Shown here piece after piece: positions 9,428-56,573 of a DNA stretch of 64,000 nucleotides. The translations under genes and the position numbers were made by a program. This DNA is from Acidobacteriota bacterium. GTDB lineage: Bacteria; Acidobacteriota; Thermoanaerobaculia; Multivoradales; J023. The stretch spans positions 11,117 to 75,116 of the forward strand of contig JBCCVZ010000001.1 of assembly GCA_039194425.1 (NCBI GenBank). Direction: 5' to 3'. How positions within the stretch are numbered: position 1 is the stretch's first letter; each line of letters opens with the position of its first letter. The notes under the pieces were generated by a model. That model was given only the letters and a program-made list of their open reading frames with translations, made no database searches and had not been told where the DNA came from.

Positions 9428-9503
9428 GGGGCGGTAGCTCAGTTGGGAGAGCACCACGTTCGCATCGTGGGGGTCGAGGGTTCGAATCCCTTCCGCTCCA
9501 CCA
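9428..9503 (+). tRNA. tRNA-Ala (anticodon CGC)
   Basis: A 76-nt cloverleaf fits: acceptor GGGGCGG/CCGCTCC with the G3:U70 Ala identity pair. D-arm TAGCTCAGTTGGGAGAGC, anticodon loop TTCGCAT, T-loop TTCGAAT, 3' CCA. Confidence 0.85.
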
Positions 9504-10977
9504 CTCCTGACCCTTTCTCGGAATCCCGGTCTAAATCTCTGAAAAGCCTACTAGTTACGGCGGTTCGAAGTCCGGATTCTGGAGAGTATTTTGCGCCTTC
9601 TGGGAACAGCAGGGCCTGAAGCTCACGGCGCTGAGCATCGGTTCCTTGCTCCCAGAGCCGGTCGGCGCTCGTGATCACCTCGGCGGCGAAAGCCACGGCG
9701 CCTTGAATATCGAGCTCATCAAGCTCGAGCTCAGACGCCTGGATCTTCGCCAGCATGAGCTGATCCTTGTACTTCTCGTGCAGACGCTCAAAGGTGGCTT
9801 CGTCGATGCGCTTCTCGACGATATGCGCCTCGACCAAATTGTCGATCTTCTGTTCGAGATCCGTAACGCGACGTCGGATCGCCTTGCGGGACCGGCCCAC
9901 CTTCGAGGCACTTTCCTCCCACGCCGTGATGACGCTGGCCTTCCAAATCGCGAGCAAAGCGTCGTCTGGGCGAAGGCGACGCAGACGACGTAGCCAAGCG
10001 TCGTGCAGCTTGTCAGCCCGAATCCGCCACGCATTGTTGTGCGGGTGGTAGTAGGCATAGGCTCGGCTTCGCCCCTTCGAAAGACTGCCTGTGAGCGGCT
10101 GACCTTCATCGTCGCTCACAAAGCCCTTCAGAGGGAACTCGGGGTGCTCAATCACGTGCGGCTTGGCCGCTCCGACTCCTTGCCGATTCTTGACCAGTTG
10201 GTCCTGCACTCGGCCGAAGAGACGATTCGACACCAAGGGCTCCCAATCGCCATCGGTGTTGAGCCCCATGCGGTCCATGACGCCGCAGTAGACTGGGTGC
10301 GTGAGTATCTTGCGCAGTGTACTGACGTGAAGCTTGCCGCCACGCTGACCACGAAACCCGCGCCCGTCCATGTGTCGTACAAGGCTCTTCAGGGTCCATC
10401 CGCCCGTGGCATACCTCTCGAAGGCATCGACGACGAGAGGCGCCGTCTTGGGGTCTGGCTCGATAGACTTTTGCCTATCCGGACGCTCGAAGTTCCTATA
10501 GCCGACAGGTGCCGGCCAGATCCAGCGCCCCTTCTTGGCGGCTTTGAGCATGTTCTTACGGATCGTCCGCGAACGATCGTCGTTGTTGAACTGCGCGTAG
10601 GCGGCGAGAATACCTCCGAAGAGCTGCCCCTCGGGCGAGTCGTCGACCTGGGGCGAGTCGAGCATGCGAATCGTGATGCCGTACGTGAGCAGCCGGTGGC
10701 GGATCACGTGATGCCCGTACTGGTCGCGGGCGAACCGCATCGCGTCGCGGACGATCAGCATGCTGACGCGCCCCTTGTTCCTGCGACACCAGTCCAGCAT
10801 CTCCTCGAAGACTGGTCGTGCCGTCGTCTTGGCGGACACTCCCGGCTCGATGAAAACGCGAACGAGCTCGATGCCCTGACGCGCGCAGTACGTCCGCGCG
10901 TCTTCCTCTTGCTGCTCCAGCGAGTAGCCTCTTGCTTGCTCTTCGCTGCTGACTCTGGCGTAGACGATCGCCCGCAT
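9439..10977 (-). CDS. Large serine recombinase (resolvase/invertase N-domain + recombinase domain + zinc-ribbon/coiled-coil)
   Basis: MRAIVYARVSSEEQ...YSLEQQ catalytic N-domain with the Ser nucleophile, followed by a large-serine-recombinase C-terminal region. Start taken at the internal ATG (MRAIV). The 3' end overlaps the tRNA-Ala 3' half on the opposite strand. Confidence 0.85.
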   Translation of the reverse strand: MRAIVYARVSSEEQARGYSLEQQEEDARTYCARQGIELVRVFIEPGVSAKTTARPVFEEMLDWCRRNKGRVSMLIVRDAMRFARDQYGHHVIRHRLLTYGITIRMLDSPQVDDSPEGQLFGGILAAYAQFNNDDRSRTIRKNMLKAAKKGRWIWPAPVGYRNFERPDRQKSIEPDPKTAPLVVDAFERYATGGWTLKSLVRHMDGRGFRGQRGGKLHVSTLRKILTHPVYCGVMDRMGLNTDGDWEPLVSNRLFGRVQDQLVKNRQGVGAAKPHVIEHPEFPLKGFVSDDEGQPLTGSLSKGRSRAYAYYHPHNNAWRIRADKLHDAWLRRLRRLRPDDALLAIWKASVITAWEESASKVGRSRKAIRRRVTDLEQKIDNLVEAHIVEKRIDEATFERLHEKYKDQLMLAKIQASELELDELDIQGAVAFAAEVITSADRLWEQGTDAQRRELQALLFPEGAKYSPESGLRTAVTSRLFRDLDRDSEKGSGVVERKGFEPSTPTMRTWCSPN

Positions 10978-10990
10978 AACGGGGCCTAGT

Positions 10991-11176
10991 CTACCTCGCG
11001 GTCGAGTGTGACCGAATGTATCGGCCGACGACCTCGCGGGCCGTGCGCATCGTCCACTCTTCGACCAACTCGACAAAGTCGTCGTCGGCGGTCTTCAGCC
11101 ACGCCTCGACAGCAGCAATCTCGCGCTCCGAGAGGCACGCGACGCGGCGTCTGATCTCTGCAGCGGCGGCGTTCAT
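10991..11176 (-). CDS. Small hypothetical protein (61 aa); possible recombination directionality factor or regulatory protein
   Basis: ATGA overlap with the dnaB stop. Sits directly upstream of the recombinase gene. No recognisable domain. Confidence 0.35.
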   Translation of the reverse strand: MNAAAAEIRRRVACLSEREIAAVEAWLKTADDDFVELVEEWTMRTAREVVGRYIRSHSTAR

Positions 11177-21504: not shown

Positions 21505-21897
21505 ATGGACTTCGCCCGAAAGCTTGGAGCCGAAATCGCGAGAAAGCGCGAGGCCGCGGGGCTAACTCAGCGGGATCTGGCTGACCGCCTCGGTCAGGCC
21601 GCAATCAGTTCGGTTTCAGCTTGGGAGACAGGCTCCCGGGGAATTTCCGTCGAGAACCTGGTTCGCGTCGCTCGGGCCCTTGGGGCGCATCCGGAACGTC
21701 TGCTGGTCGCAGCTTTGGGCCCAGATGGTACTGGCGAGTTCGTCCATGACGAGCTGCGAGAAGAGGTTGAGGACGCCGCAGGCGATGGAGTGTTCGAGAC
21801 CCTCGTTCTCGAGCGGCTAGATCGTCTCGAGGCCAATTTGGCCGACGAGGTTCGACAGATCGTCGAAGCGGTCAAAGCGCTAAGAATTAGCGTTTGA
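21505..21897 (+). CDS. CI-like XRE-family HTH repressor (130 aa)
   Basis: N-terminal HTH (LTQRDLADRLGQAAISSVSAWETG) plus a C-terminal dimerisation-like helix. Confidence 0.8.
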   Translation: MDFARKLGAEIARKREAAGLTQRDLADRLGQAAISSVSAWETGSRGISVENLVRVARALGAHPERLLVAALGPDGTGEFVHDELREEVEDAAGDGVFETLVLERLDRLEANLADEVRQIVEAVKALRISV

Positions 21898-22774
21898 GTA
21901 TTTCCAGGCGGTCTCGTGTCTCCTGGATGGCTGCGGTGTCGAGGCGTCCTCTATCAGCCAGGTTCATCAGTGAGATGAGAACGCGGCGTGCATAAGAGTC
22001 TGCCCCGAGCCGTCCGAGCAGTCTGAAGGCCCAAGCCGCCGTACTGAGGGATTTCTGGCGGCCGGAAGCAACTAGTATTGCTGCCAAATCGGTTGCTGCA
22101 AGCGCCGAGTCAATGGGGAACCCCGCTTCGAGGAAAGAGTCGATTGCGGTCGAAACGGCCTCTTCAGCGCCTTCTAGGGCGTCCGCGGTAGCAAGAATCG
22201 ATCCGACGAGCCAGGAGAGGCGGGCCCTGTCGAGATGCTCGTCGCTAGGTATCTCGCGCTGGGCGGCTGCGAGTCGTGACGTCGCCTCATGCGTGTTGCC
22301 AAGGCGAGCGTGTGCAGCAATGAGGTTGAAGGTGCGAACAATCGAGTATCGTCGCGGAAAGCCGTCTGGCTTGCTCATCTCGGTTGCCTCGATTGCCTCT
22401 TTGGGCCGAGACGCATATAGCAACACTCCGCCGAGGTCCACCAATCGGCGATTCTCGTCGAGCGCTCCGCGCAGTACAGCTCTCCGCGCGAGAACTACGG
22501 CCCGCTCGTAGTCGCCCTTTGCTAGGCGAAGGGACGCAAAGCGGATCAAGAGGTCGCGCTCTTCGTCGGCGCGGCCAGCGGTCAGGTTGCCCGCTGCCGC
22601 GAGAGAGGTCCCAGCTTGGCGGAGTCGTCCAGTTGCTCGGCACGCAGATCCGAACAAGGCGAGCCGCCGACGGAGCGGCTCGCCTGCACTATCGTCTACC
22701 AGGGCAGCTCTCGCTGCATCGTAGGCAGCATGAGGCTGCCACATGATGAGCTCTTCGATCTGCTCTGGGTCCAC
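21887..22774 (-). CDS. TPR-like helical-repeat protein
   Basis: All-alpha with Ala/Leu-rich repeats. Convergent with the cI-like gene. Confidence 0.45.
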   Translation of the reverse strand: MDPEQIEELIMWQPHAAYDAARAALVDDSAGEPLRRRLALFGSACRATGRLRQAGTSLAAAGNLTAGRADEERDLLIRFASLRLAKGDYERAVVLARRAVLRGALDENRRLVDLGGVLLYASRPKEAIEATEMSKPDGFPRRYSIVRTFNLIAAHARLGNTHEATSRLAAAQREIPSDEHLDRARLSWLVGSILATADALEGAEEAVSTAIDSFLEAGFPIDSALAATDLAAILVASGRQKSLSTAAWAFRLLGRLGADSYARRVLISLMNLADRGRLDTAAIQETRDRLEILKR

Positions 22775-22780
22775 CTGTGG

Positions 22781-23005
22781 TCATCCTCCTGGAACGAGCG
22801 CGGGGCCAATCTCGGGGTCCGCGGGGTCATCGTCGCCGTCGATGGACTCGGTGTTGCATTCGCCTCCAGTGACGACCTCGTAGATCTCGCAGAGGACGTC
22901 CATTACGACGTCCTCGACGGTCTGGGCGTCGTCGGCGAAGGCCGACGGCGACATGAAGAGGAGCAAGGCGATGAGGACGATGAGACGCGTCGTGTGGGTG
23001 CGCAT
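22781..23005 (-). CDS. Small secreted acidic protein (74 aa)
   Basis: Signal peptide (LIVLIALLLFMSPSAFA). Acidic Cys-containing mature part. Confidence 0.4.
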   Translation of the reverse strand: MRTHTTRLIVLIALLLFMSPSAFADDAQTVEDVVMDVLCEIYEVVTGGECNTESIDGDDDPADPEIGPALVPGG

Positions 23006-23301
23006 GAGTCTCTCCTGGTGGTCGTAGCCGACCGGGCGGCATGCTCGGTCGCTCGACCGTGCCGGTCAGGAGGCTATCGCCGCATCGTCCTCGACGCTTG
23101 ATCCCGCGATCTGCTGTCAAGACATCTTGCCTGCGCGTCGGCTCCGCGTCAAGGACTGTTGCGGCGATCTCTCCGGCGGTTCTGTTAGGTTCAGACCCCC
23201 ATCCGCACAGAAGGTTGAGAGGGTTCAATGCATCGATCTAAATATCTGTCCGTCCCTGGCTTTCCTCTCTGCGCGCCGAAGCTCGCCGGCGAGGCGCGCC
23301 G

Positions 23302-23759: not shown

Positions 23760-26009
23760 ATGCTGCCTCCAATGAGGAGCAAGAGGCTGTACTCTCATCG
23801 GTGGGCTCGAGGAGAGCCAGGATTGGGGAGAGATGTCTTGCCGGAACCAAACCCTGAACACTTGGAGAGACTGCAGGAGGGCGCTGAGGCGTGGAACAGC
23901 TGGTGTAGGGAAAAGGTGGTCCTCCGGTTGGATCGGAGGGGCGAGCTTGAGGGCGTCGAGCGCCAGCGCGCCGATCTCCCAGGCGCCAACCTCGCAGGCG
24001 CCAATCTCCACGGCGCCGATCTCGAGGCAGCCAATTTCCAGGGCGCCGATCTCGCAGACGCCAATCTCCAGGGCGCCAACCTCATATGCGCCAATCTCCA
24101 GGGCGCCAACCTCGCAGACGCCAATCTCCACGGCGCCAAGCTCCAGGGCGCCAACCTCGCAGACGCCAATCTCCAGGGCGCAATTCTCACGCGCGCGAAT
24201 CTCCAGGATGCCAACCTCCAGGGCTCCGTGCTCGCGCGCGCCGCGCTCCACGGCGCCAATCTCCACAGCGCCAAGCTCCTAGGCGCTGCGCTCACCGCCG
24301 CCAATCTCCAGGGCGCAATTCTCACGTGCGCAAGTCTCCAGGATGCCGATCTCCAGGGCGCCGAGCTTGCGCGCGCCGACCTCCACTTCGCCAAGCTCCA
24401 GGGCGCCAACCTCGCAGACGCCAATCTCCACGGCGCCAAGCTCGCAGACGCCAATCTCCACGGCGCCAATCTCCAGCGCGCCGAGCTCGCGCGCGCTGAT
24501 CTCCAGGGCGCCAATCTTCAGAGCGCCAAGCTCCAGGGCGCCGAGCTCCAGCGGGCCGAGCTCCAGGGCGCCAACCTCGCAAGCGCCAATCTCCGGAGCG
24601 CCAAGCTCCAGGGCGCTACGCTCGCCGCCGCCAATCTCCAGAGCGCAATTCTCACGCGCGCGAATCTCCAGGATGCCAACCTCCAGGGCTCCGTGCTCGC
24701 GCGCGCCGCGCTCCAGCGCGCCGCGCTCCAGGGCGCCAGGCTCCAGGGCGCCAATCTCCAGGGCGCGACGCTTCAGGGCGCTACGCTGTCCGCCCCTCGC
24801 GAAGGCTTCACTTCCTGGATGACCGAGATCCAGCACATCAATCTCGCGCGCGCCAGGGTCCGGGTCGCTGAGCTCCAGGGCGCCGATCTCCAAGACGCAA
24901 ATCTCGCGCGTGCCAAGCTCCAGGGCGCCAATCTCCAGGGCACCGTTTTCCAGGGCGCCGTTCTCAAAGGCGCCATGCTCCAGGGCGCAGTTCTCCGGGA
25001 CGTCGATCTCCAGGGCGCCGAGCTCTCGAGGGCTGCGCTTCACGACGCCAATCTTCAGAGCGCCAAGCTCCAGGGCGCCTGTCTTCAGGGCACCCAGCTC
25101 CAGGGCGCCAAGCTCCAGGGCGCAGTTCTCACGCGCGCGGATCTTCAAGGCGCAAGTCTCGCGCACGCCAAGCTCCAGGGTGCCCAGCTCCAGGGCACCA
25201 ATCTCGCGCGTGCCGATCTCCACGGCGCAAGTCTCCAGGGCGCAAAGCTCGGAAAGGCCCTTCTTGTCGATGCCAACCTTCGGGACGCTAGGATCGAGAA
25301 GGCAGACCTTCGGGGCGCCCAGCTCGGAGGAGAGCTCGCCGGCGCGAACTTTCGTGGGGCGAACCTTGAGGATGTGAGAGTCAGTAGAAGGCAGGCAGAC
25401 CTTCGACTTGACCGAAACTTCATCCGCGGTGCACGCTTCTCTCCGAAGGCCGCCGATCCGTGGTCTGTGCTGCGTCGGAACTATACAGGTTCGCGGCTAC
25501 TGTTCCACCTTCTCCTCCTTGTGGCTTTTGTGCTGCCGTACATAGCTCGGTCTCTGATGTGGGTGGGCGTGAACCACTCCCAACGGGCAATTGAACACTC
25601 GACGTTGACGCTCAAGGCTGTTGCTAACAATCTCGAAACCACCGCAGATCCAAACGCTCAAGCCGTGGCGCAGATCGCCGAGCGTCTCGGTCAGATGGAA
25701 GCCTGCTTGGCGGAAACATGTAAGGAGTTCTATGTTTGGGAGGTACTCCTTGGCGTGGACCAGGGCGTCGAGCGATGGATGTTGACGGTCGCCGTCCTAC
25801 TCTACAACCTGTTGCGTGGCGTGCTGACCTGGAAGGTGGGACCTTTGCGGGACGAGGAGGAGCGAACGGACACCACGCCAGCGCTCGATTCGTACCTTTG
25901 GCTCTTCTACCTTCACCGAGTGGCGACGGTTCTTCTCGTCGTCGCGGTGGTGGCGTTTGCCTACAGCACCGCTCAGTGGCTGTCCCTGACGGTGTCTCTG
26001 CCTGCCTGA
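23760..26009 (+). CDS. Giant pentapeptide-repeat protein with C-terminal polytopic membrane domain
   Basis: About 100 consecutive A(N/D)LxG pentapeptide repeats. An N-terminal AWNSWCREK motif common to pentapeptide-repeat proteins. The C-terminal 180 aa contains at least four TM helices. Confidence 0.8.
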   Translation: MLPPMRSKRLYSHRWARGEPGLGRDVLPEPNPEHLERLQEGAEAWNSWCREKVVLRLDRRGELEGVERQRADLPGANLAGANLHGADLEAANFQGADLADANLQGANLICANLQGANLADANLHGAKLQGANLADANLQGAILTRANLQDANLQGSVLARAALHGANLHSAKLLGAALTAANLQGAILTCASLQDADLQGAELARADLHFAKLQGANLADANLHGAKLADANLHGANLQRAELARADLQGANLQSAKLQGAELQRAELQGANLASANLRSAKLQGATLAAANLQSAILTRANLQDANLQGSVLARAALQRAALQGARLQGANLQGATLQGATLSAPREGFTSWMTEIQHINLARARVRVAELQGADLQDANLARAKLQGANLQGTVFQGAVLKGAMLQGAVLRDVDLQGAELSRAALHDANLQSAKLQGACLQGTQLQGAKLQGAVLTRADLQGASLAHAKLQGAQLQGTNLARADLHGASLQGAKLGKALLVDANLRDARIEKADLRGAQLGGELAGANFRGANLEDVRVSRRQADLRLDRNFIRGARFSPKAADPWSVLRRNYTGSRLLFHLLLLVAFVLPYIARSLMWVGVNHSQRAIEHSTLTLKAVANNLETTADPNAQAVAQIAERLGQMEACLAETCKEFYVWEVLLGVDQGVERWMLTVAVLLYNLLRGVLTWKVGPLRDEEERTDTTPALDSYLWLFYLHRVATVLLVVAVVAFAYSTAQWLSLTVSLPA
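23940..24800 (+). repeat. DNA-level 15/30-bp periodic tandem repeat (ggcgccaa(c/t)ct(c/g)c(a/g)g...) encoding the pentapeptide repeats
   Basis: Visible in the nucleotide sequence as near-identical ggcgccaacctcgcagacgccaatctccagggcgcc units. Confidence 0.7.
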
Positions 26010-26645: not shown

Positions 26646-27341
26646 GTGGCAGATCCAGAGCTTGTCTCTCTCCTGCGATCGAGTCCATGGAGATGGAACG
26701 ACTTCAGGAGGCGGAATCACTCGGCCTGGCAAGCGGACCTTACCGAGGCCGACCTCAGCCTGGCGGCCCTCAGCGACATCAACCTCACGAGAGCCAACCT
26801 CAGCGGCGCGAACCTTACCGACACCGACCTCAGCGGAGCGAATCTTACCGACACCAACCTCAGCGACGCCAACCTGAGCGGAGCGAATCTCAGCGAAGCA
26901 AACCTCAGCGGAGCCTACCTCAGTGGCGCCAACCTCGGCGATGCCAACCTCAGCGACGCCAGTCTCATCGGGTCCAACCTTAGCGACGCGAACCTCAGCA
27001 ACGCCAACCTCTTCGCTGCTCGCGTCATGGGTGCGGACCTCACCAGAGTCAACCTCTCGGGCGCCAAAATCGTCGGCGCAAGCTTTGGTGGCGCCTACAT
27101 CCGGCACGGCATCTTGCGAAACAAGCTCTCCGCCCTCATGCTAGTTCGCGGACACAGGAAGGAGTTTTCTGTCGACCGGCTAGCCGCTGTTCCCGACCTT
27201 GCCGATATTGCGATCATCTCGCCCTCTGGCACCTCAATGGAGATGATTGATCGCATCACTTGGGCGCTTGACCAGCTGGTGCAAGCTATTGAAGAAGACG
27301 AGGGGCGGGGTTCTGGTTCCGCAGCCGGCGGTGCGGCATGA
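26646..27341 (+). CDS. Pentapeptide-repeat protein (231 aa)
   Basis: N-terminal WRWNDFRRRN motif, then about 25 A(N/D)LSG repeats. Confidence 0.8.
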   Translation: MADPELVSLLRSSPWRWNDFRRRNHSAWQADLTEADLSLAALSDINLTRANLSGANLTDTDLSGANLTDTNLSDANLSGANLSEANLSGAYLSGANLGDANLSDASLIGSNLSDANLSNANLFAARVMGADLTRVNLSGAKIVGASFGGAYIRHGILRNKLSALMLVRGHRKEFSVDRLAAVPDLADIAIISPSGTSMEMIDRITWALDQLVQAIEEDEGRGSGSAAGGAA

Positions 27342-27823
27342 GCCCTAAGAATGAGCGCGAGCAGCACGATCGGCAGGAGATAGAGCTCAAGGCTGCACTC
27401 GGATCGATCCGCATAAGCCGAGACCTTCAAGAATCTGCAGGCCCGAGAAGTCTTGCCGATGTCAAGAAACAAGTCTGGCTCGATCTGCTGTCAATAGCCA
27501 CCGCGCCGACCGGTATTGTCGCTACGCTGCTCCAAGGGGTGATTCGGCTCATTGAGGTCATCACCTTTAGTACTGGTGGTTCCAGGCACAATCCTGATTC
27601 TGGCGGTCCAAGCGGAAAACTGTCTGACGGGCGGAGGCGCCTTTCTCGCGCCGAGGCCTTGGCTGAGATTGATCGCCTCGTGGCTTCGACCGGCGGACAG
27701 ATCATCGAAGTGGAAGGCCAGCCATTGATTGTGTTGGGCGACAACAACCCAGCGCAGTTGGGCCAGCCAGAATCGGCCCTGCGACTGGTTGAAAGCGACG
27801 CTGATACAGACGAGTCGGCTTGA
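27338..27823 (+). CDS. Hypothetical protein coupled to the pentapeptide-repeat gene
   Basis: ATGA overlap. No recognised domain. Confidence 0.5.
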   Translation: MSPKNEREQHDRQEIELKAALGSIRISRDLQESAGPRSLADVKKQVWLDLLSIATAPTGIVATLLQGVIRLIEVITFSTGGSRHNPDSGGPSGKLSDGRRRLSRAEALAEIDRLVASTGGQIIEVEGQPLIVLGDNNPAQLGQPESALRLVESDADTDESA

Positions 27824-29582: not shown

Positions 29583-29673
29583 TGGGTAATATTGTTGCCC
29601 AATCGGGTTCGAGTGTCAACCTTCGAGGGCAAGAAAGTTGCCTTGTCTTGCTGCGCTGTGGAATGATTCCGCC

Positions 29674-29937
29674 ATGGCCGAGTACCTCCCGATTGATCGA
29701 CTGCTCACCACCGAGGCGCGGGCGTCGCTCGATCCCGCAGCGCAGCTGCGCGCGTGGTACGGCGCCGCCGGACTGACCGCCGCCTCCGTGGCCGATGAGC
29801 TGGAGGTGGGGCGGCCCTTCCTGTCTCGTGTGCTGAATGGAGTGCGGCCGATGCCGCGCGACAAGGCCGAGCGGCTCGAGAAGCTGACGAGCATTCCGGC
29901 CTCGCTGTGGGAGACCCGATCTGTAGGTGATGGTTGA
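29674..29937 (+). CDS. Small HTH DNA-binding protein
   Basis: Start taken at the ATG (MAEYL), not the TTG at 29638. HTH LTAASVADELEVGRPFLSRVLNG. Confidence 0.5.
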   Translation: MAEYLPIDRLLTTEARASLDPAAQLRAWYGAAGLTAASVADELEVGRPFLSRVLNGVRPMPRDKAERLEKLTSIPASLWETRSVGDG

Positions 29938-29946
29938 GGGCACTTG

Positions 29947-30801
29947 TCAGCGTGGATCGTCTGGAGCTGGCGTGCGATCCGAATGATGCTTTTCTTGGGT
30001 CATTTCCTTGGCCAAGCGTGAACGGGCTTCGGCAGCCCGTAGGTAGTCGGTAAGAGACACCAGCTTGGTTCTTAGCCGAGATAGCTCAGGGAACGTGGCA
30101 GCTGCGCTCACCAACTTCGGATCCAAATCAACTCCCGCACGGGCTACTTGCTCCGCCCGGAATCTCAATTCTTCTGTTCTGAGTTGCTCCCCGAGAGGGC
30201 GAAAATAGTCAGGGCCGCTTAGTCTTCTCTGGTTGGCTCGTGCCAACTCCAGCAGTTCCTCCAGGATTGCTTCCAACGAACTTGACGAATCTGATTTTGA
30301 TGCCTCTACCGGAGATTCGCGCTCCCGGAGCGCATCAAGGTTTCCCTCGAGCTCGGGCCACCAGACATCGAATGTCTTCTTCAGCTGCGGATCGGTGAGG
30401 CGCTCCGCCTCGCCGAGGCGCCGGTTGAGCCCCTGGACCAGTTTCAGCACATCGTCGCGATTGAAGACTACAGACTGAAACTGGAGCAAGGGCCCTTGGA
30501 CCTCGGACCGTCTCACTCCGACGAGGAACGGCACGACGTGCGACTTGTCGAGGCTTCTCGACAGGGCACCGGCTTCGAAGTGGACCCAGGGAGCCCTCAG
30601 GTTTTCTTGGGTGACGCAGATGATGCCGTAGCTCGCGTCTTCGAGCTCGGCGGCGATATCTGAGCTCCAGCGAGCGCCTTTGTCGATGTCTTCCGAGGAG
30701 ACGTAGGGTCTCAGGGCTTGGAGCACCGATGGCAGCCAGTCTCGGAGGGTGAGTGCGATCTGATGGCTTTGGGTGCCGGACCAGCTCAGAAAGGTCTTCA
30801 T
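29947..30801 (-). CDS. TIR-domain protein 1 (TIR_2-like N-domain + helical C-domain)
   Basis: MKTFLSWSG (betaA) ... SSEDIDKGARW ... GIICVTQENLRAPWVHFEAGAL follows the bacterial TIR_2 pattern. Start at the internal ATG. GGAG upstream. Confidence 0.7.
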   Translation of the reverse strand: MKTFLSWSGTQSHQIALTLRDWLPSVLQALRPYVSSEDIDKGARWSSDIAAELEDASYGIICVTQENLRAPWVHFEAGALSRSLDKSHVVPFLVGVRRSEVQGPLLQFQSVVFNRDDVLKLVQGLNRRLGEAERLTDPQLKKTFDVWWPELEGNLDALRERESPVEASKSDSSSSLEAILEELLELARANQRRLSGPDYFRPLGEQLRTEELRFRAEQVARAGVDLDPKLVSAAATFPELSRLRTKLVSLTDYLRAAEARSRLAKEMTQEKHHSDRTPAPDDPR

Positions 30802-30809
30802 AGCCGTTT

Positions 30810-31673
30810 TCACTCCGGACCTTCGCTGCGTCTCGGTTGAAGCCAATATAGGTCGGACCGGGGAATACAATTCTCGTTAGAAAGTATTTCTGCAATCCTA
30901 TTGATATCTTTCATGAGTTCCGCGGTCACTGGGGTGAGCGCATCCCGGTCCACTGGGGAATCCATATCTAGAAGGTGCGCAAGATGAAGTGCAAATTCGC
31001 GGAGCCTATCGAGCGTGCGAACAAGGTCTTGGCCATGAACGATAGGTAGTCGCACATAGACTTTTTCTTGGGGAGCGAGCTGCTTTGGGTCGCTCAGGAG
31101 TCTCTGGTTGGCGCGAGTCAGCTCTAAGATTTCCTCCAGGATCGCCTCTGATGACGAGGGTTTCTCTTTGGCCGGCTCAGTAGCTGGCTTGGCTGATGCG
31201 ATGTTCTCAAGGTCGGCCTTGAGTCGAGGCCACCAAACGTCGAAAGAATCCCGCACGCGCTCTTCGGTCAGGCGCTCTTCTTCGCCAAGACGCTGGTTGA
31301 GACTGCGGACCATCTTCAGCACATCGTCGCGATCGAAAATCACGGATTGAAACTGGATCAACGGCCCCGGAACCTCGGACCGCTTCACGCCGAGAAGGAA
31401 CGGTACGACGTGCGACTTGTCGAGGCTCTTCGACAGGGCCCCGGCTTCGAAGTGGACCCATGGGGCCCTCAGGTTCTCTTGGGTGACGCAGATGATGCCG
31501 TAGCTCGCGTCTTCGAGCTCGGCGGCGATATCCGAGCTCCAGCGCGCGCCTTTGTCGATGTCTTCCGAGGAGACGTAGGGTCTCAGGGCTTGGAGCACCG
31601 ACGGCAGCCAGTCTCGGAGTGAGAGTGCGATCTGATGGCTCTGGGTGCCGGACCAGCTCAGAAACGTCTTCAT
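30810..31673 (-). CDS. TIR-domain protein 2 (paralog of protein 1; divergent C-domain)
   Basis: The first ~150 aa are about 90% identical to protein 1. ATGA overlap with the upstream membrane-protein gene. Confidence 0.7.
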   Translation of the reverse strand: MKTFLSWSGTQSHQIALSLRDWLPSVLQALRPYVSSEDIDKGARWSSDIAAELEDASYGIICVTQENLRAPWVHFEAGALSKSLDKSHVVPFLLGVKRSEVPGPLIQFQSVIFDRDDVLKMVRSLNQRLGEEERLTEERVRDSFDVWWPRLKADLENIASAKPATEPAKEKPSSSEAILEEILELTRANQRLLSDPKQLAPQEKVYVRLPIVHGQDLVRTLDRLREFALHLAHLLDMDSPVDRDALTPVTAELMKDINRIAEILSNENCIPRSDLYWLQPRRSEGPE

Positions 31674-32767
31674 TGTTGATCATCCGACAGGAGCTCAAAG
31701 TCAAGAGCCGCCGAAGGGTGCTGGAGAAACCTGACTGCTACACTAATGTCAATCGCCGCCCTCTCGCCAAGTCGGGGGAGAAGCGGCAAGAGATCAACTC
31801 TGTCTGAATTGCACTCCAGATAGGCTCGGCTGTCCCCTCGGATCTCAATTTCTCCAGTAAACTGAATCAGCGCTAAGGTACTGCTTTCTGTGAGCCCGAC
31901 TATCCTATAGCTGCCACGGATACTAGTGGGACCTGGCTCATAGCCAGGAGGGGGCCTGAATCTAGGAGGGGCCCTAAAGGGAGAGTCCAGGTCGCCGCCA
32001 AAAGACCTACGCAACTCCCTATTCACGAAGATTGCGATGTCTGCGTAGGCGGCTGATGTCACGACAATCTCAACGGTGGTACTCGGGCGATCCCACAAAG
32101 TCTTGTGAGCAAAGCACTCGATGTACGTGTCAACTGTTGAAGCTTCTGGAATTCTGATATTTGCATTCTGTGCAGCTCGGCCCAGTCGGAAGGAAAGAGA
32201 CTCTCTCCGGTCTCCGGAAGCCTTGGACGTCTCAAGGAGTGTCGCAATCGCGTTCTCGATCCTTGCGAGTTCCTTTCTCTTCGCCGCGCGGCCTGCCTCT
32301 GATCTAGGCTCAGCAAGACTTTCTAGCTGAACGATATCACTCTCATATTCGGCAATGATGGCTCGGGCCTTCTCCTGGTCTAGAGTCAGTTCATCAACCT
32401 GCCTCTTGAGGATCGCCACTCTGTGCACTTCTTCTCGCTCGCCCAAAGCCCAGGAATGGACTGGATCTCCAGGATCCAGGGTAGCTAGAAGGAAATCCAA
32501 GATATCTTCCTTGTTGTCAATCGACTGCTTAGTACCAATGATCCGCTCAAGGTAACGAATTTGCAGTTCATTCTGCGCCCTCTGATTCTCGACGGCAGTC
32601 TTGAACAGGCCGTTGATGGCGGCGGTCATCGGGCCAATCGCACCGATGACCGCGATCAGGAGCACGATGCTAGTCGACTTCGAGAGCTCTCGAGATCGCG
32701 GCTTCGTCTTGCCGGGGGCTGCGAGGTGTCGCGCACGGACTCTCTTTTTGAGTGCTTTCCGAGTCAT
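31670..32767 (-). CDS. Single-pass membrane protein with coiled-coil and C-terminal domain of unknown function; candidate effector
   Basis: N-terminal TM (IVLLIAVIGAIGPMTAAINGLF). A long coiled coil. A roughly 170-aa C-terminal domain with no recognisable SIR2, Macro or SLOG motifs. Confidence 0.55.
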   Translation of the reverse strand: MTRKALKKRVRARHLAAPGKTKPRSRELSKSTSIVLLIAVIGAIGPMTAAINGLFKTAVENQRAQNELQIRYLERIIGTKQSIDNKEDILDFLLATLDPGDPVHSWALGEREEVHRVAILKRQVDELTLDQEKARAIIAEYESDIVQLESLAEPRSEAGRAAKRKELARIENAIATLLETSKASGDRRESLSFRLGRAAQNANIRIPEASTVDTYIECFAHKTLWDRPSTTVEIVVTSAAYADIAIFVNRELRRSFGGDLDSPFRAPPRFRPPPGYEPGPTSIRGSYRIVGLTESSTLALIQFTGEIEIRGDSRAYLECNSDRVDLLPLLPRLGERAAIDISVAVRFLQHPSAALDFELLSDDQQ

Positions 32768-33168
32768 AGGGCTCTCGACCGACGGTGCTCATTGGTTGAA
32801 AGGGCGACCAACGGAGCAAGGAACGAGCGGGCTCGGCGGCGTCGCTGCATAGTGCGGGGCCGCCGCCTGTCCCGAGCTCACATCTAGTCTCATCATAGAC
32901 TGGCCTGCCCGCCGATTCAACAGACTCGCTGGCTCGCGGCCTCCGCGCATCCCAATTAGGCCCTTGAGTCAGTTGAGGATACTCGGGCATCAGGTGCTGG
33001 CCAGGCATTCCCGTCAGCGGTTCTGCCCAGATGCCTTGATAGAGTCAGGCTCCACCGAGATTCGGGAGGCGTTTGAGCGCTGGGCGGGGATCGGCTGGAT
33101 GTTTTGAGGGCGCCGCATCTGATCGCGGCGAAGAGGCCTTATCTCGAGAGACGTCTTGTGGAGTAGGA

Positions 33169-34500
33169 ATGGGAAGCAAGACTGCCCCGAGGCTGTTCTT
33201 CAGCTATTGCCAAGAGTCGGAATCGCACTCTGCGCGTGTTCGAAACCTGGCACGGCGGCTCGCCGATGACGGATGCGTCTGCATCCTGGATCAATGGACT
33301 GCCCCACCTGAAGTCGGTTGGCCGCAGTGGATGAATTCTCAGATCGAAAAGGCGGAGTTTGTTCTCGTCGTTTGCACAGAAGAGTATCTGCAACGAGCGA
33401 CTGGACAAAGAAAACCCTCTGGCGTGCGGTTCGAGTGTGTTCTCATCATTCAGGACCTCTATGATTCTGCGATGGTCAACAAGAGGTTCATTCCGATCTT
33501 GTTCAGCGATTCGTCGCCAGAGCACATTGTTCGGCCGCTAAAGGGTTTTACCTATTATCGAGTCGACCGTGACCGAAGTTATGAAGATCTCTTGCGACAT
33601 ATCACCAATCAGCCAAGGCACATTCCTCCAACGCGAGGAAGGGTTCCGCATCTGCCACCGGAAAGCCCGCCTGCGGTCTCATCAAAGGCAGCAGTTCGAG
33701 ATCTCGATGCACCTGCCGCAGGCTTTTTACAGTCGCCGGCCTTCATCTATGGAAAGCTCAGCGCTAGGGGTCTTCTAGATTCGAAACTCACCGAGAACCC
33801 TTATCGCTTTTCCGCGGATCCGACCGACGAAACGAGCGTCGGAGTTGAAAAGAATGTCTCTGCCTTCCTCTGGATCCCACACAGCGATTACATGAAGCAG
33901 CCTCAGCCCTTTACCCCATTGGTGGCTCTGTGCACGCTGCGCCCTAAAGAAGTGGTCAATTCTACCAGGGGATTGTTCGGTGACCGAGCGCTCTCAGTTG
34001 CCAAGAGACGTCCTAGCAAGCTTTGGCCCTCCGAGAAAGAACTGCTCTTGTCAATTGCGGCAGAGATCCTCGAAGAGTGCTTCACAGTCGCAGTCACAAC
34101 CCCCGCAGCGCTTCTGAGCGGAGGTAGACGCAGACCGGATCTAGCGTACAGAGTGCTCTTGGACCTGTTTCTCTTCCCTCTGCTCGACATGCATAAACGG
34201 CTTGAAGTTGACCAGTTCCACTTGAAGCTGCAAGGCGGAGATCCCAAGAGAAACAGCTTGCTGAAGACTACCAAGCAAGATATAAAGAGTGTGTTCCCTC
34301 ATAGGTCGAATACGGTGGAACTCGTTGAGGCGACTGAAGAATCCACCATCTTTCTTGAGGTCGGCCGCTATCTTGGGTGGATCCTCAATCGACACTACAA
34401 CGAGGGCAAGCGCGATTGGCTTGACCGACTCAAGACAGCAATTGGCAATGAGTCGAAAGGTTCATTGGATGTAAGAGAAGAGCCCCTCCCGCATGGATGA
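33169..34500 (+). CDS. SEFIR-domain protein with large C-terminal domain of unknown function
   Basis: RLFFSYCQESESHSARVRNLARRLADDGCVCILDQW...VLVVCTEEYLQRA matches the SEFIR consensus. Strong GGAG RBS. Locally low GC. Confidence 0.7.
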   Translation: MGSKTAPRLFFSYCQESESHSARVRNLARRLADDGCVCILDQWTAPPEVGWPQWMNSQIEKAEFVLVVCTEEYLQRATGQRKPSGVRFECVLIIQDLYDSAMVNKRFIPILFSDSSPEHIVRPLKGFTYYRVDRDRSYEDLLRHITNQPRHIPPTRGRVPHLPPESPPAVSSKAAVRDLDAPAAGFLQSPAFIYGKLSARGLLDSKLTENPYRFSADPTDETSVGVEKNVSAFLWIPHSDYMKQPQPFTPLVALCTLRPKEVVNSTRGLFGDRALSVAKRRPSKLWPSEKELLLSIAAEILEECFTVAVTTPAALLSGGRRRPDLAYRVLLDLFLFPLLDMHKRLEVDQFHLKLQGGDPKRNSLLKTTKQDIKSVFPHRSNTVELVEATEESTIFLEVGRYLGWILNRHYNEGKRDWLDRLKTAIGNESKGSLDVREEPLPHG

Positions 34501-34964: not shown

Positions 34965-35630
34965 CTAAATCTCGCCGGCGAGGGCGGCCTGGGCGATGGC
35001 GTCGGCGACGGGGTCGAGGCCGGGGATGTCGAGGTCTTTGAGCTTGTCGAGCCGGCGCTCGAGCTCTTGGGCGTTGATCACGCCGTTCTGGAGGTCTTTC
35101 ACGATGCCTTCCAGGATCTGGCGGATGCGGTTGCTGTCGTCGCCAAGGCCGTTCAGGAGGTCGCTGATCGAGGCGGTGCCGCTCTGGAAGTCGGCGAGCA
35201 GGGCCTGAAGCTCCTGCTTGCGGTTCGCGACCTCGACGCCCGCCTGGCGGAGGTTCGTCATCATCTCCGCCAGCGGTCCGGCGACTTGCTCGACGTTGCC
35301 GACCAGCTGGGCGCCGAGCTCGCGAGTGTCGATGAGGCCGGCTTGCACCAGGTCGAGCCCGGCTTGAACGACGGCGTTGTTCTCCTGCGCGATGTGCTGG
35401 ACGGCTTGGAGGCTCTCGCGGTTGCGCTGGATGTGACCTTCGATGGTGCCGAGGTGGAGGCGCTGGAGCTCGATCGAGCGTTCCATCGCCTCGACTCTGC
35501 GCTGCGTCTCGACGTAGACGGCCTGCAGCTCGATGGCTTTGCCCGCGGCGCGCTCGGCCTCCTTTCCGGCGGCCTTGATGTCGCCGCGTGCTTTCTGGGT
35601 GGCCCGGATGAGGCGTTGCAGGGCTCCCAT
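34965..35630 (-). CDS. Coiled-coil phage protein (tail-associated)
   Basis: All-helical heptad-rich sequence directly downstream of the tape-measure gene. Confidence 0.45.
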   Translation of the reverse strand: MGALQRLIRATQKARGDIKAAGKEAERAAGKAIELQAVYVETQRRVEAMERSIELQRLHLGTIEGHIQRNRESLQAVQHIAQENNAVVQAGLDLVQAGLIDTRELGAQLVGNVEQVAGPLAEMMTNLRQAGVEVANRKQELQALLADFQSGTASISDLLNGLGDDSNRIRQILEGIVKDLQNGVINAQELERRLDKLKDLDIPGLDPVADAIAQAALAGEI

Positions 35631-38600
35631 CAGGCGGCTTCCGCGGTGTCGGAATCGCTGAGGTCGACGTCGGCGACTTCGGCGTCGAGCCGCTGCAGGT
35701 CTTCGAGCAGGCCGGCGAGCTCGGTGCGCGCCAGGCCGATGGCGGTGCGTCCCCGTTCGACGCCGCGTTCGATGGCGCTGCCGATCGCTTCTTCGAGCTT
35801 GGGCGCCTGGCCCTCGAGGTCGACCAGGTCGCCGCGCAGCTCGCCGACCTGGGTGCGCAGGGTGTCGGGCAGGCCGAGGCCGGTAAGGGTCGCCTGCAGC
35901 TCCTCTCCGGCGGCCTTGGTTTCGCCGATGAGGGTCTGGACGCGGTCGAGCTCTTCCTCGGCGGCGGCGAGCGCGCCCTCGGCGGCATCGCCGGCGCGGT
36001 CGCTCTCTTCCTTGGCTTTGGCGGCCTCATCGGCCGCGCGCTTGCCTTCCTCGGCGGCCTTGGCGGCCTCGTCGGCCGCGGCCTTGCTGCCGTCGGCCAG
36101 GTCCTTCCCGGCCTCACCTCCGCGGTTGGCCGCGGCCTCCAGTTGGTTCGCAGCCTCGGACGTCGCGTCGGCGCCTTGCTGGATCGCCTGGGCCGCTTCT
36201 TCGACGGTTGGGATGAGGTGTTTTGTGCCGTCCTCGAGCTTGATGTAGTTCTCGGCGGCTCGCTCGACCGCGGCGCCACTCTCTTCGACCTTCGACGAGG
36301 AGTCAGACACCCGCTGTGCGGCGTCCTCGACCTGCTCGGCGGTCGTTTGCGCCTGGGTCCCCAGCTGCTCGATCTCGTTCTTGAGGGTGACGGTGCCGCC
36401 GCCGGCTCCGTCCATCGAGGCGCCCATGTCGGAGGCCGCGGTTCCGGCCGAGAGCAGACCATCGGCGGCGGCGCGGACGCTGCCCTGGAGGCGGGTCATG
36501 GCGGTCGTAGCGCCGTCGGTGGGGGTGACCAGCTCGTTGCCGAGCGCGTTGTTGAGGTTCGCGACTTCCTGGGTGATGACGCCGCCGGCGTCTTGGATGA
36601 TCTGGACCTGCTCTTGCACGACCTCGCCAAGCGCGCGCTGCTTCTCGATCGGCAGCTGCAGGATGGCCGTGTAGTTGTCGGACAAGCGCTGGAGCAGCGC
36701 CTCGGCAGCGGCGGCCTTGTCCTCGAGCATCTCGTCGACGCCGAGCGCGTCGAGGATCGCTTTGCGGGCGCTCTCCCCCGCCTCTTTCTGGCTCTCGGTG
36801 AGCCCGTCCCACAGGCTCCGGATCTGATCGACGCCGTCCTCGACACCGCGGGTCAGGTCGTTCTGGCCCTCCTGGATGTCCCGCATCGCGCCGGTGGTCG
36901 CGTCGCGATTCTGGGTCCAGGTTTCGGCGAGGGCATCGCCAAAACGCTCGAGGCTCTCTTTCCCCTCTTTCGAGCTCTCGACGATGAGGTCGATGCCCTC
37001 TTTGGCCGCACCCTGGAAAGATTCTTTGATGGAGGCCGCGACCTGCTCGACGTTGGTGCCCAGGTCTTCGAGTCCGGGGACCTGGCCGATCAGCTTGCCG
37101 AGCTGTTCGACTCCGGCGCCGACTGCCGTGAGCACTCCGCCCACGAGCGCCTTGATCGCGCCGGTGATGACGCTCGCGCCGGTGCGCACGGCAGCGACGG
37201 TGCCGCCGATCGCGAGGACGATGGTGCCGAGTGCGCGGCCGAGCTCGAAGGCCGCGTTGCCGCCGCGGCGCAGCCCGCCGGTGAGGTCTTGCACGAAGGC
37301 CCGTAGCGCCGGGGTCGCGCCTTCGCCCACCTCGAGCGTGACGCCCTCCCAGGCCGACTTGAGGTTGGTGACGTCGCCTTCGAGGTTGTCGAGTCGCAGC
37401 TCGGCCATCTCGCCGGCGGCGCCGGCGCTGTCTTCGAGCGCCTTCTGCAACTCGCGCAGCGGCCCCGTGGCGCCGGCGGCGGCCAGGATCGAGGCGACAC
37501 CGCGCTTGCCGAAGATCTCGTACGCTTGCCCGGCGTCGATCCCCGCGACGGCGAGTTTCTCGATGACAGGGATGAGGCCATTGGCCTCGGGATTCACGTC
37601 CTCGAGGCTCAGGCCGAGTTCGCTGAGCGCCCGCTTGGCGCCGGCGGTGGGCTCGACCAGGTTGAGGAGCATGTTGCGGAGCGCGGTGCCGCCCTCTTCG
37701 CCCTTGATGCCCGCGTTGGCGAAGGTGCCCAGGGTCGCGATCACCTGCTCGAGCGGGATGCCGAGCGCGGCCGCGACGGGCGCGACCTTGGCCAGGCCTT
37801 CGCCGAGCTGGCTCACGGTCGTCGCCGATTTGGCGCTTCCCGCGGCGAGATTGTCGACCACGCGGCCGAGCTCGGAAACCGGCAAGCCCATGCCTCGCAG
37901 GGCGTCGGACGCGATCTCGGCAGCCTGGCCGAGATCGAGACCTCCGGCGGCGGCGAGCTCGAGCACGCCCTCGACGCCTTCGTAGGTCTCGTTGACGTCG
38001 AACCCCGCGCGCGCCAGGTTCTCCATCGCCTCGGCGGCCTGGGTGGCGCTGAACTGGGTGGTGGAGCCGAGCGCTTTCGCGCGCTCGACGAGGGCATCGA
38101 AGTCCTTAACGCTGGCCTGCAGGATCGACTGCACGGCGCCCATCTGGCCGCTGAACTCGGAGATGGTGCCGAGCGCCGAGCGCATCTGCTGCGCGAAGCC
38201 GGCGAAGCCGAGCGCGGCGATCGCCGTCTTGAGGCCGCCCAGGCTCGCAACCTGCTCGCGGATCCCGGCGGTGAAGGCGCGCGCCGCGCCGGTCGCGCGG
38301 TAGTAGGCCGAGGTGAGCCGGCTCCCGACGGCGGTGGCCGCCGAGCCGGCGGAGGTGGCGATCTGGCGTAACACGCCGAAGAGACCGCGCTTGGCGCCGC
38401 TGGCGGCATTCGCCGCGGCGCCGCTGCGGCGGGTAGCCTGGGCGCTGCGCTCGACGCCGCCCGCGGCGCTCGAGGCGGCCTGCCCGAGCTGCTCCGTTTC
38501 CTGCTCGAGCTTGTCGACGTCTCCGGAGGCGGTCTTCGCCTCGGAGCCGAGCTTCTTGGCGCCCTCGCTCAGCTTGTCGAGCTCGTCTCCGCCGGTGACG

Positions 38601-38638
38601 GAGACTTCGCCGCGGATGCCGAAGCGGCTCTCACTCAT
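35630..38638 (-). CDS. Phage tail tape-measure protein (1002 aa)
   Basis: Ala/Gly-rich helical protein with the conserved TMP core (FSATQAAEAMENLARAGF...GGTALRNMLLNL). Confidence 0.85.
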   Translation of the reverse strand: MSESRFGIRGEVSVTGGDELDKLSEGAKKLGSEAKTASGDVDKLEQETEQLGQAASSAAGGVERSAQATRRSGAAANAASGAKRGLFGVLRQIATSAGSAATAVGSRLTSAYYRATGAARAFTAGIREQVASLGGLKTAIAALGFAGFAQQMRSALGTISEFSGQMGAVQSILQASVKDFDALVERAKALGSTTQFSATQAAEAMENLARAGFDVNETYEGVEGVLELAAAGGLDLGQAAEIASDALRGMGLPVSELGRVVDNLAAGSAKSATTVSQLGEGLAKVAPVAAALGIPLEQVIATLGTFANAGIKGEEGGTALRNMLLNLVEPTAGAKRALSELGLSLEDVNPEANGLIPVIEKLAVAGIDAGQAYEIFGKRGVASILAAAGATGPLRELQKALEDSAGAAGEMAELRLDNLEGDVTNLKSAWEGVTLEVGEGATPALRAFVQDLTGGLRRGGNAAFELGRALGTIVLAIGGTVAAVRTGASVITGAIKALVGGVLTAVGAGVEQLGKLIGQVPGLEDLGTNVEQVAASIKESFQGAAKEGIDLIVESSKEGKESLERFGDALAETWTQNRDATTGAMRDIQEGQNDLTRGVEDGVDQIRSLWDGLTESQKEAGESARKAILDALGVDEMLEDKAAAAEALLQRLSDNYTAILQLPIEKQRALGEVVQEQVQIIQDAGGVITQEVANLNNALGNELVTPTDGATTAMTRLQGSVRAAADGLLSAGTAASDMGASMDGAGGGTVTLKNEIEQLGTQAQTTAEQVEDAAQRVSDSSSKVEESGAAVERAAENYIKLEDGTKHLIPTVEEAAQAIQQGADATSEAANQLEAAANRGGEAGKDLADGSKAAADEAAKAAEEGKRAADEAAKAKEESDRAGDAAEGALAAAEEELDRVQTLIGETKAAGEELQATLTGLGLPDTLRTQVGELRGDLVDLEGQAPKLEEAIGSAIERGVERGRTAIGLARTELAGLLEDLQRLDAEVADVDLSDSDTAEAA

Positions 38639-55691: not shown

Positions 55692-56515
55692 GTCGCCTCT
55701 CCTCGGCCCCGTGTCAGGAGCTGGACGAGTGACACCATCTGGCCGTCGCGCTCGGCGTCGCCGCGGGCCTTCGGGGTCAGCATGTAGGCATCCGCGGTGT
55801 ATCCGAGATGGCGCTCGAGCTCGCGCGCCTGGTCAACCGCTGGGTGGGGCACTCGCTTTGTGCCGAGGCGTTCGCCGTCCTTGCCGAGGAGCTCGACCGT
55901 CTCCCAGGGCTTGTCGTCTTCGATGGCCTCGTAGCAGCGCAGCAGGTGGGCGGTCTGCGCTGCAAAGGCTCTAGCAGCTAAGGGGCGTAGGCTGTCGACG
56001 TCGCCGGCGAGCGCCTTGGAGAAGCGCTCGGCGACGGCGTCGTCGACCACGAGCGAGCGTGCACAGACCTCGAGAGCGCCGCCCTGCTCGGTCACCTCTC
56101 GGCGCATGGAGCACGGGAAGCCATCGGCGTTCGGGCAGGCCGAGCGCTTGCACGGTGGCACAGCGCGACGGGCAGCGCTGGTTGCGTGCTCACCGGTCTT
56201 CACTGCGGCCGATCGCCGCTGCGCCGTCGCCGCCGGCGACATCGTGTAGTCGCGGCGCCGTTTTCGCGGCGGTGCGCTCGCCAGGTCGCGGTCGTGCAGG
56301 GCTTCGACGAGTCTTCGCGCGGTGGAGGCGCCGACCCTCGGCACCGAGCACAGGGTGGCGGTGTCCTGGGATCGCAGGGCGCGGACGAGGTCGTCGACGG
56401 GGATCGCGTCGAGGAGGGAGCGCGCCAGCGCCCGGCCGATGCCGGGCACGGTGACCAGGTGGCGGTGCACCTGGTCGCGGTCTGCGCTTGCGCTGGCGGT
56501 CGCCTCGTCCATCAT
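55688..56515 (-). CDS. Putative terminase small subunit / HhH DNA-binding protein
   Basis: Helix-hairpin-helix repeats (VTVPGIGRALARSLL; VPRVGASTARRLV). ATGA overlap with TerL. Confidence 0.4.
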   Translation of the reverse strand: MMDEATASASADRDQVHRHLVTVPGIGRALARSLLDAIPVDDLVRALRSQDTATLCSVPRVGASTARRLVEALHDRDLASAPPRKRRRDYTMSPAATAQRRSAAVKTGEHATSAARRAVPPCKRSACPNADGFPCSMRREVTEQGGALEVCARSLVVDDAVAERFSKALAGDVDSLRPLAARAFAAQTAHLLRCYEAIEDDKPWETVELLGKDGERLGTKRVPHPAVDQARELERHLGYTADAYMLTPKARGDAERDGQMVSLVQLLTRGRGEAT

Positions 56516-56573
56516 GGGTAGAGGGTCGCTGCGAAGAAGTCAACCGCCAAGGCTCCGGAGGCCGCAGAACACC

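Follow-up and report, generated by a model that had tools for sequence, protein, structure and literature searches.

The 64,000-nucleotide stretch of Acidobacteriota DNA analysed here (metagenome-assembled contig JBCCVZ010000001.1 of 597,531 bp, positions 11,117 to 75,116; hereafter the window, in whose numbering all positions are given) carries a Mu-like prophage with a low-GC accessory island, and this island encodes two tandem TIR-domain proteins, TIR-A and TIR-B, preceded on the same strand by the gene of a membrane protein, MEM. Judging from their sequences, TIR-A and TIR-B are members of a known defence-associated family, TIR-TM, and represent neither a novel TIR type nor the ThsB component of Thoeris systems. 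We propose, with a probability of about 0.6, that the two TIR proteins are autonomous abortive-infection proteins and that MEM is a co-transcribed, functionally separate envelope protein. According to this proposal, TIR-A and TIR-B would each be self-contained: the hypervariable C-terminal helical tail would recognise a phage component, the conserved helices 137-160 and 174-199 would mediate assembly, and the oligomerised TIR domain would cleave NAD+ through residue E76, thereby aborting the infection. Two copies with different tails would widen the range of phages excluded by the prophage, and MEM would be the product of an independent accessory gene, a periplasm-facing membrane-anchored protein and not a signal-activated effector. 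The locus adds an Acidobacteriota prophage example to this family, one whose tandem arrangement with two different tails is unusual; TIR-A and TIR-B are new members of a known family, and we found no evidence that the whole arrangement forms one system.

The three genes occupy positions 29947-32767 of the window and are all encoded on the minus strand, in the order MEM, TIR-A, TIR-B, according to the list of open reading frames (ORFs):

32767..31670, minus strand: MEM, a single-pass membrane/coiled-coil protein of 365 amino acids (aa), from the ORF list
31673..30810, minus strand: TIR-A, 287 aa, a TIR domain followed by a unique three-helix tail (Pfam, PADLOC and PHROG matches)
30801..29947, minus strand: TIR-B, 284 aa, a TIR paralog of TIR-A (Pfam, PADLOC and PHROG matches)

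Direct reading of the sequence showed that the stop codon of MEM and the start codon of TIR-A share an ATGA at 31673-31670, whereas the TGA of TIR-A (30812-30810) is separated from the ATG of TIR-B (30801) by an 8-nt spacer without any overlap. Therefore, the ATGA coupling that a preliminary description of this DNA had claimed for the TIR genes is confined to the MEM/TIR-A junction. The mechanical ORF list gives TIR-B a length of 307 aa from a TTG at 30870; we favoured the ATG at 30801, which yields 284 aa, because the N-terminus in the family alignment reads MKxFLSWSG, with M1 and K2 nearly invariant. A sigma70-like site, recognised by consensus match only, lies ~125 nt upstream of MEM (32920..32892, minus strand).

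TIR-A and TIR-B are members of the TIR-TM family

Both TIR proteins exceeded the Pfam TIR_2 gathering score of 28, with 34.1 and 35.1 bits (E-value of 4e-8 for TIR-A), in agreement with the TIR_2-type domains proposed in the preliminary description. Their sole match in a PADLOC scan at E<=0.1, which retrieved no ThsB-type TIR, was the model TIR-TM (PDLC03016; 1.4e-97 for TIR-A and 1.1e-93 for TIR-B), and both also matched the PHROG family phrog_13899 (1.4e-76 and 3e-75, respectively). The two proteins covered positions 1-211 of the 293 in the PDLC03016 profile; no alignment extended past ~211, so that the C-terminal third of the profile (~212-293) was not matched. This does not exclude TIR-TM membership because the family tail is hypervariable: the mean pairwise identity in an alignment of 72 family sequences was 71% for TIR residues 1-135 and 57% for residues 174-203, but only 17% for the tail. 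Clustering of these 72 tails produced at least three large classes plus singletons, one of the latter being the tail of TIR-A, and the tail of TIR-B was weakly tied to the largest class. Such a conserved enzyme domain joined to a hypervariable tail is what one would expect if a single protein acted as sensor and effector.

The motifs recognisable in TIR-A include SWS at residues 6-8, DIDKG at 38-42, W72 and E76. Residues S6-W7-S8, D38-I39, K41-G42, W45, W72 and F75-E76-A77-G78-A79-L80 were invariant in the 72-sequence alignment, which bears out, with E76, the catalytic-type glutamate put forward in the preliminary description. All the family-invariant residues (SWS, DIDxG, W72 and F75-E76-x-G-A-L), together with the post-TIR helix ILEEILEL-R, are present in both TIR-A and TIR-B. 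We take the W72-x3-E76 motif to mark the catalytic glutamate position of NAD-cleaving TIR domains, including those of plants, SARM1 and bacterial TIRs. A weak profile match to the TIR structure 7uxr placed W72...E76 in register with its W..YE.

The AlphaFold2 (AF2) model of TIR-A, built from the 72-sequence alignment, had a mean predicted local distance difference test (pLDDT) score of 80.9, with values above 90 for most of residues 1-160. It displays a confident TIR fold up to residue ~130 and a long helix at 137-160, then a low-confidence, non-helical linker (161-173), a conserved helix (174-199) and a lower-confidence three-helix tail (204-287). Foldseek comparison of this model with the PDB retrieved the TIR domains of SPARTA TIR-APAZ proteins as best matches, followed by plant and animal TIRs, all of them weak (E ~3e-4, TM 0.3-0.4). 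PDB searches found no solved structure of any member of the TIR-TM family.

TIR-A and TIR-B share 75% protein identity over residues 1-202 and are unrelated beyond that point, as the preliminary description had noted in assigning them different helical C-domains. Their residues 1-80 are nearly identical and, at the DNA level (31432-31673 versus 30560-30801), the two genes are 93-98% identical over the first 240 nt, after which nucleotide identity declines steadily to less than 55% by nt 420. From this gradient, the two paralogs appear to have diverged and then undergone gene conversion at their 5' ends.

The family is widespread and its members normally occur singly

At a threshold of E<=1e-3, the TIR-TM family comprises 3,081 clusters from Bacteroidota, Pseudomonadota, Bacillota, Acidobacteriota and other phyla. 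To characterise its genomic context, we called ORFs and clustered the neighbouring genes at 80 genome loci and 78 viral-contig loci. All 80 genome and 78 viral loci contained one family copy each, and no relative of MEM was detected at any of them. The proteins closest to TIR-A, four in number (49-63% identity), are also encoded by solitary genes, located for example beside type I restriction-modification (RM) genes or a PemK toxin gene, and none of these four has a second TIR copy, a MEM-like gene or a conserved neighbour. Two expectations of the preliminary description do not agree with these data, namely that MEM is conserved with the TIR genes, a pairing absent at the 158 homologous loci and at the four nearest relatives, and that several TIR genes reflect a Thoeris layout, every other family locus being single-copy.

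Only integrases (at 12 genome loci) and phage genes for terminase or HNH proteins recurred as neighbours of the family. Co-oriented upstream neighbours at <=150 nt with a hydrophobic segment were found at 7/80 and 7/72 loci, to be compared with a background of 12.6% of all ORFs; there is, therefore, no enrichment in membrane proteins upstream of this TIR family. The combination seen in our window, with a tandem TIR pair carrying different tails, an unrelated membrane gene and a bSEFIR-like gene (see below), was unique among the ~160 loci. A tblastn search of GenBank phages matched four records, which corresponded to two copies each of P2_AC1 and mEp390.

MEM is a membrane protein with an apparently undescribed anchor module

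MEM begins with a basic tail (12 K/R and 1 acidic residue among the first 31), followed by a single hydrophobic, transmembrane (TM) segment at ~31-55, a conserved juxtamembrane module and a coiled coil at ~56-190, and a beta-rich C-terminal domain at ~195-365. In its AF2 single-sequence model, which was poor (pLDDT of 43.6), residues 31-190 form long helices and the C-terminal part is rich in beta structure. These features support the single-pass, N-terminally anchored coiled-coil protein of the preliminary description, which had likewise seen no SIR2, Macro or SLOG motifs in the C-terminal domain; the profile scans returned none. Searches against Pfam, PADLOC, NCBIfam and PHROG gave no match beyond coiled-coil noise, and a PDB sequence search was empty. 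As regards a possible ThsA-type effector, no Pfam, PADLOC or NCBIfam domain was found in MEM and its model did not reach the quality required for comparing folds.

Among 5.8 billion proteins, a word-indexed search detected MEM itself only and no full-length homolog. With HMMER, an exhaustive scan against 1.84 billion representative proteins yielded 50 remote matches (best E 3.5e-15), all confined to MEM residues ~30-170 and none of them full-length. The shared module consists of a TM helix ending in P-x-TAA-I-NG, followed by the signature RLKYLDRAIDP...YRE.VL.FL...DPM..WA and then by the coiled coil. This anchor module (residues ~30-130), which has no Pfam match, is apparently undescribed. The C-termini of its carriers vary, and the recognisable ones are SH3_3, SPOR and Pesticin/lysozyme domains. 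Because these C-terminal domains are peptidoglycan-directed and extracytoplasmic, and given the charge bias of MEM itself, MEM probably adopts an N-in/C-out topology, with its coiled coil and homolog-less C-terminal domain in the periplasm. If this is right, the C-terminal domain, for which the preliminary description had considered a signal-binding fold, is separated by the membrane from any cytosolic TIR product. No TIR gene was found near MEM-module relatives in four contexts, all of them short or uninformative, and no MEM-module locus was found in the viral scan. One homolog of the module, P0125, is followed by a TM and pentapeptide-repeat protein, a resemblance to positions 26646-27823 of the window that is perhaps a coincidence.

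The cassette of phage P2_AC1 and the separability of its modules

TIR-A shows 44% identity with the TIR protein of Escherichia phage P2_AC1 over residues 1-205 (tblastn, E 7e-52), which itself matches the PADLOC model TIR-TM at 2.7e-118. In P2_AC1, the TIR gene is preceded by two small same-strand genes, with matches to 2TM-TIR and 1TM-TIR in PADLOC, and the whole cassette is catalogued as Rst_2TM_1TM_TIR. This three-gene cassette was cloned by Rousset et al. (2022; PMC9122126) and protects against phages lambda, LF82_P8 and P2; the same authors proposed that the TIR protein signals to the TM proteins. Their work and catalogue mentions were all that we found in the literature on the mechanism of the TIR-TM family.

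The distribution of the cassette components is uneven. The AC1 1TM family contains 49 clusters only, essentially from Enterobacterales, and the AC1-type TM pair accompanied the TIR gene in just 2 viral loci among the 158, both P2-like. Prophages of Klebsiella and Plesiomonas also carry the 2TM+1TM pair, there without a TIR gene less than 4 kb away, and in P2_AC1 the TIR gene starts 240 nt downstream of the pair. Since the TM pair can be found without the TIR and the TIR is usually solitary, the two are separable modules, and the AC1 cassette may consist of two adjacent independent systems. The cassette is intact in 14/5,426 complete E. coli genomes, a frequency that says nothing either way about its composite nature. 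The TIR-less pairs occupy the interval from Q to holin, or else a position in the lysis region, and their 2TM/1TM junction is a 4-nt overlap in Klebsiella and a 16-nt spacer in Plesiomonas.

A distant homology of MEM to the 1TM or 2TM proteins of AC1 was also considered and rejected, as there was no PADLOC or phmmer match and hhalign against the 1TM family gave a probability of 0.15%. The 2TM component (PDLC02978) had no PADLOC or phmmer match within the 24-40 kb region of the window.

A TIR family that annotation tools file under the three-gene label '2TM-1TM-TIR' is, thus, almost always solitary. If the AC1 cassette is composite, this family of >3,000 clusters would represent a TIR defence encoded by a single gene that has gone unrecognised as such, each protein having its own variable sensor tail. 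Were that true, the conserved TIR domain with swappable tails would make the family well suited to studying the triggering of TIR NADases.

Alternative explanations

Several observations weigh against our preferred reading, in which TIR-A and TIR-B act autonomously and MEM is functionally separate. The ATGA at the MEM/TIR-A junction, with no predicted terminator between the genes, gives the three genes the look of a functional operon. The only experimentally tested relative, that of P2_AC1, also has upstream same-strand membrane-protein genes, and the genes of that cassette were never tested separately (PMC9122126). Neither action on its own nor NAD+ cleavage is known for any family member. 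The neighbour analysis rests on crude ORF calling and a hydropathy threshold, and the charge bias that is clear for MEM is not decisive across its remote homologs in a positive-inside check. In particular, the ATGA overlap and the AC1 precedent keep alive the explanations in which MEM is a signal-activated effector or an envelope sensor/anchor.

In the most general form of these explanations, MEM would be the true partner of both TIR proteins in an undescribed membrane-coupled TIR system, either as an envelope sensor switching on the TIR NADases or as an executioner switched on by them, the two tails providing two input/output specificities. We consider this unlikely. A more specific scenario, which seems to us very improbable, is that the periplasmic domain of MEM detects phage adsorption, ejection or cell-wall damage and that its basic cytoplasmic tail recruits or releases NAD+-depleting TIRs. 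Such a sensor would agree with the operon layout, the probable N-in/C-out topology and the peptidoglycan-related C-terminal domains of the module relatives, but the MEM-TIR pairing is not conserved in the loci examined and the TIR family already has a variable tail that fits a built-in sensor.

The preliminary description had raised the hypothesis of a novel three-gene, Thoeris-like signalling system in which the TIR paralogs sense infection and an NAD-derived signal activates a membrane-disrupting MEM. This idea draws on the ATGA coupling of MEM with TIR-A, the conserved catalytic-type glutamate and the logic that Rousset et al. applied to the AC1 TIR and TM proteins (PMC9122126). However, we found no match to ThsA or ThsB and no SLOG, Macro, SIR2 or SAVED domain, and the TIR proteins turned out to belong to the known TIR-TM family, which is overwhelmingly solitary. 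Moreover, MEM is unrelated to the AC1 1TM/2TM proteins, it accompanies the TIR-TM family nowhere else in the loci examined, the contexts of MEM-module relatives lack TIR genes, and the probable periplasmic location of its C-terminal domain would leave a tail of ~30 aa in the cytoplasm for a cytosolic signal. Signalling of this kind has, in our view, only a slim chance of being correct.

Equally hard to credit is a role of these genes in the service of the phage itself, in which the TIRs would manipulate NAD or act in counter-defence while the phage grows lytically, and MEM would be an envelope protein for lysis or superinfection exclusion: the genes do lie within the prophage structural region just downstream of the tape measure gene, the MEM-module relatives carry lysozyme-like, SPOR and SH3 domains typical of envelope/lysis proteins, and the TIR family is often found beside terminase genes in viral contigs, but the AC1 relative protects its lysogen, many family members occur in non-phage defence islands beside RM and toxin-antitoxin genes, and the atypical GC content marks the island as an acquired accessory insert and not as core phage machinery. 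A defence role of TIR-A and TIR-B is, by contrast, probable.

The prophage island and its surroundings

The genes and elements flanking the three-gene locus, and those that define the prophage, are the following:

32768..33168: intergenic region separating the divergent MEM and bSEFIR-like genes, carrying the sigma70-like site
33073..34500, plus strand, probable start at ATG 33169: bSEFIR-like gene (Pfam SEFIR and TIR_2; PADLOC bSEFIR)
29638..29937, plus strand: small HTH (HTH_31) gene, convergent with TIR-B, at the island edge
35630-38638, minus strand: tape measure, a prophage structural gene
56322-57647: tyrosine integrase, a prophage gene near the other end
9439-11076: large serine recombinase, adjoining tRNA-Ala
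9428-9503: tRNA-Ala (CGC), abutting the serine recombinase gene

The GC content is 55-58% at 30-35 kb versus 68-77% in the flanking DNA. The surrounding Mu-like prophage also encodes tail completion, head protease and large terminase proteins, a Mu-type portal, a gpT head protein and a DnaB-type helicase. Placed amid phage structural and integration genes and atypical in composition, the region is an accessory (moron) island; the preliminary description had likewise seen a low-GC accessory island of a prophage here. Near-identical DNA was not found in known phages, and the search for island-bounding repeats gave just short chance-level matches besides the TIR duplication. The junction between tRNA-Ala and the serine recombinase (9428-11076) is likely the prophage attachment end. 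The element holds two recombinases, the serine enzyme at this tRNA-Ala end and the tyrosine integrase at 56322-57647.

The bSEFIR-like gene lies inside the same low-GC island and is transcribed divergently from MEM. Its product matched Pfam SEFIR (1.7e-11) and TIR_2 (7e-14), as well as PADLOC bSEFIR (PDLC03957; 6e-45) over profile positions 32-203 of 412 only, and it combines an N-terminal SEFIR/TIR_2 domain with an uncharacterised C-terminal region of ~270 aa. With TIR-A and TIR-B, it brings to three the TIR-superfamily genes within 4.5 kb of the island; the preliminary description listed the three genes of the locus correctly but overlooked this adjacent one.

Other genes of the element deserve mention. 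The PHROG tape-measure profiles are longer than the tape-measure ORF (1,002 aa), which matches their N-terminal and central parts only. This ORF overlaps by 1 nt a 221-aa coiled-coil ORF (both within 34965-38638, minus strand), and the low-GC island comes directly after them; the tail module may have been interrupted or truncated by the insertion of the island. Just beyond the island, on the plus strand (26646-27823), the gene of a 231-aa pentapeptide-repeat protein and an ORF of 161 aa of unknown function share a 4-nt overlap. A second low-GC patch (54%) at 58102-59094 (plus strand) codes for a protein of 330 aa that is weakly matched to SDH/ClpP-like serine proteases; this gene adjoins the tyrosine integrase and a 1,447-aa ORF (59487-63830) that had no Pfam or PADLOC match. 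On the strand opposite to that of the structural genes (23760-26009, plus), a 749-aa protein is made of many short repeats, with 13 matched stretches to phrog_7713 and a weak match to a tail-fibre PHROG. Finally, an HTH_3 protein (21505-21897, plus strand) showed weak PADLOC matches to control-protein and CapH-type regulators, and the ORFs beside it (21887-23228, 63% GC) had no matches; the 21505-23228 region may be a further accessory module.

Comparison with known TIR systems

Among the closest known systems is Rst_2TM_1TM_TIR. Its TIR belongs to the same family (44% identity, PDLC03016) and, as in our window, the TIR gene is located downstream of same-strand membrane gene(s) in a prophage accessory hotspot. 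However, MEM falls outside the 2TM (PDLC02978) and 1TM (PDLC02977) models, and a single coiled-coil protein of 365 aa stands here in place of the two small TM proteins. There are also two TIR copies here versus one, the TIR tails differ, and the ATGA overlap at the MEM/TIR-A junction contrasts with the 240-nt gap between 1TM and TIR in AC1. The other phage relative, mEp390_047 (PHROG 13899), is a prophage accessory gene of the same family (36% identity; PADLOC 1.6e-57). In contrast with the tandem pair studied here, it is a single-copy, isolated gene that is flanked by Q and the holin genes, possesses a terminator of its own and has no adjacent co-oriented membrane gene.

The neighbouring gene at 33169-34500 fits the SEFIR part of the PADLOC model for bSEFIR, a system that was reportedly described by Millman et al. 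in 2022. It differs from TIR-A and TIR-B in being a separate, divergently transcribed gene, and its coverage of the model is partial (32-203 of 412).

Thoeris systems resemble this locus in that TIR protein(s) are encoded beside another gene, with several ThsB genes at some Thoeris loci, and probably also in their NAD+-based chemistry. Thoeris membership was nevertheless rejected: PADLOC (E<=0.1), Pfam and NCBIfam scans gave no ThsB match for TIR-A or TIR-B, no ThsA match for MEM, and no SIR2, SLOG or Macro domain. In addition, the TIR-TM family is normally solitary and has its own variable C-terminal tail.

TIR-A and TIR-B keep the W-x3-E motif of assembly-activated TIR NADases, such as SPARTA TIR-APAZ, TIR-NLR/Avs-like proteins and SARM1. 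They differ from the effector-type TIR NADases of this kind in having no APAZ, Argonaute or STAND NTPase partner at the locus. The TIR domains of SPARTA TIR-APAZ are the closest solved folds to TIR-A, and the general plan of these effectors, an enzymatic TIR domain combined with a variable non-catalytic part, is also the one that we recognise in TIR-A and TIR-B.

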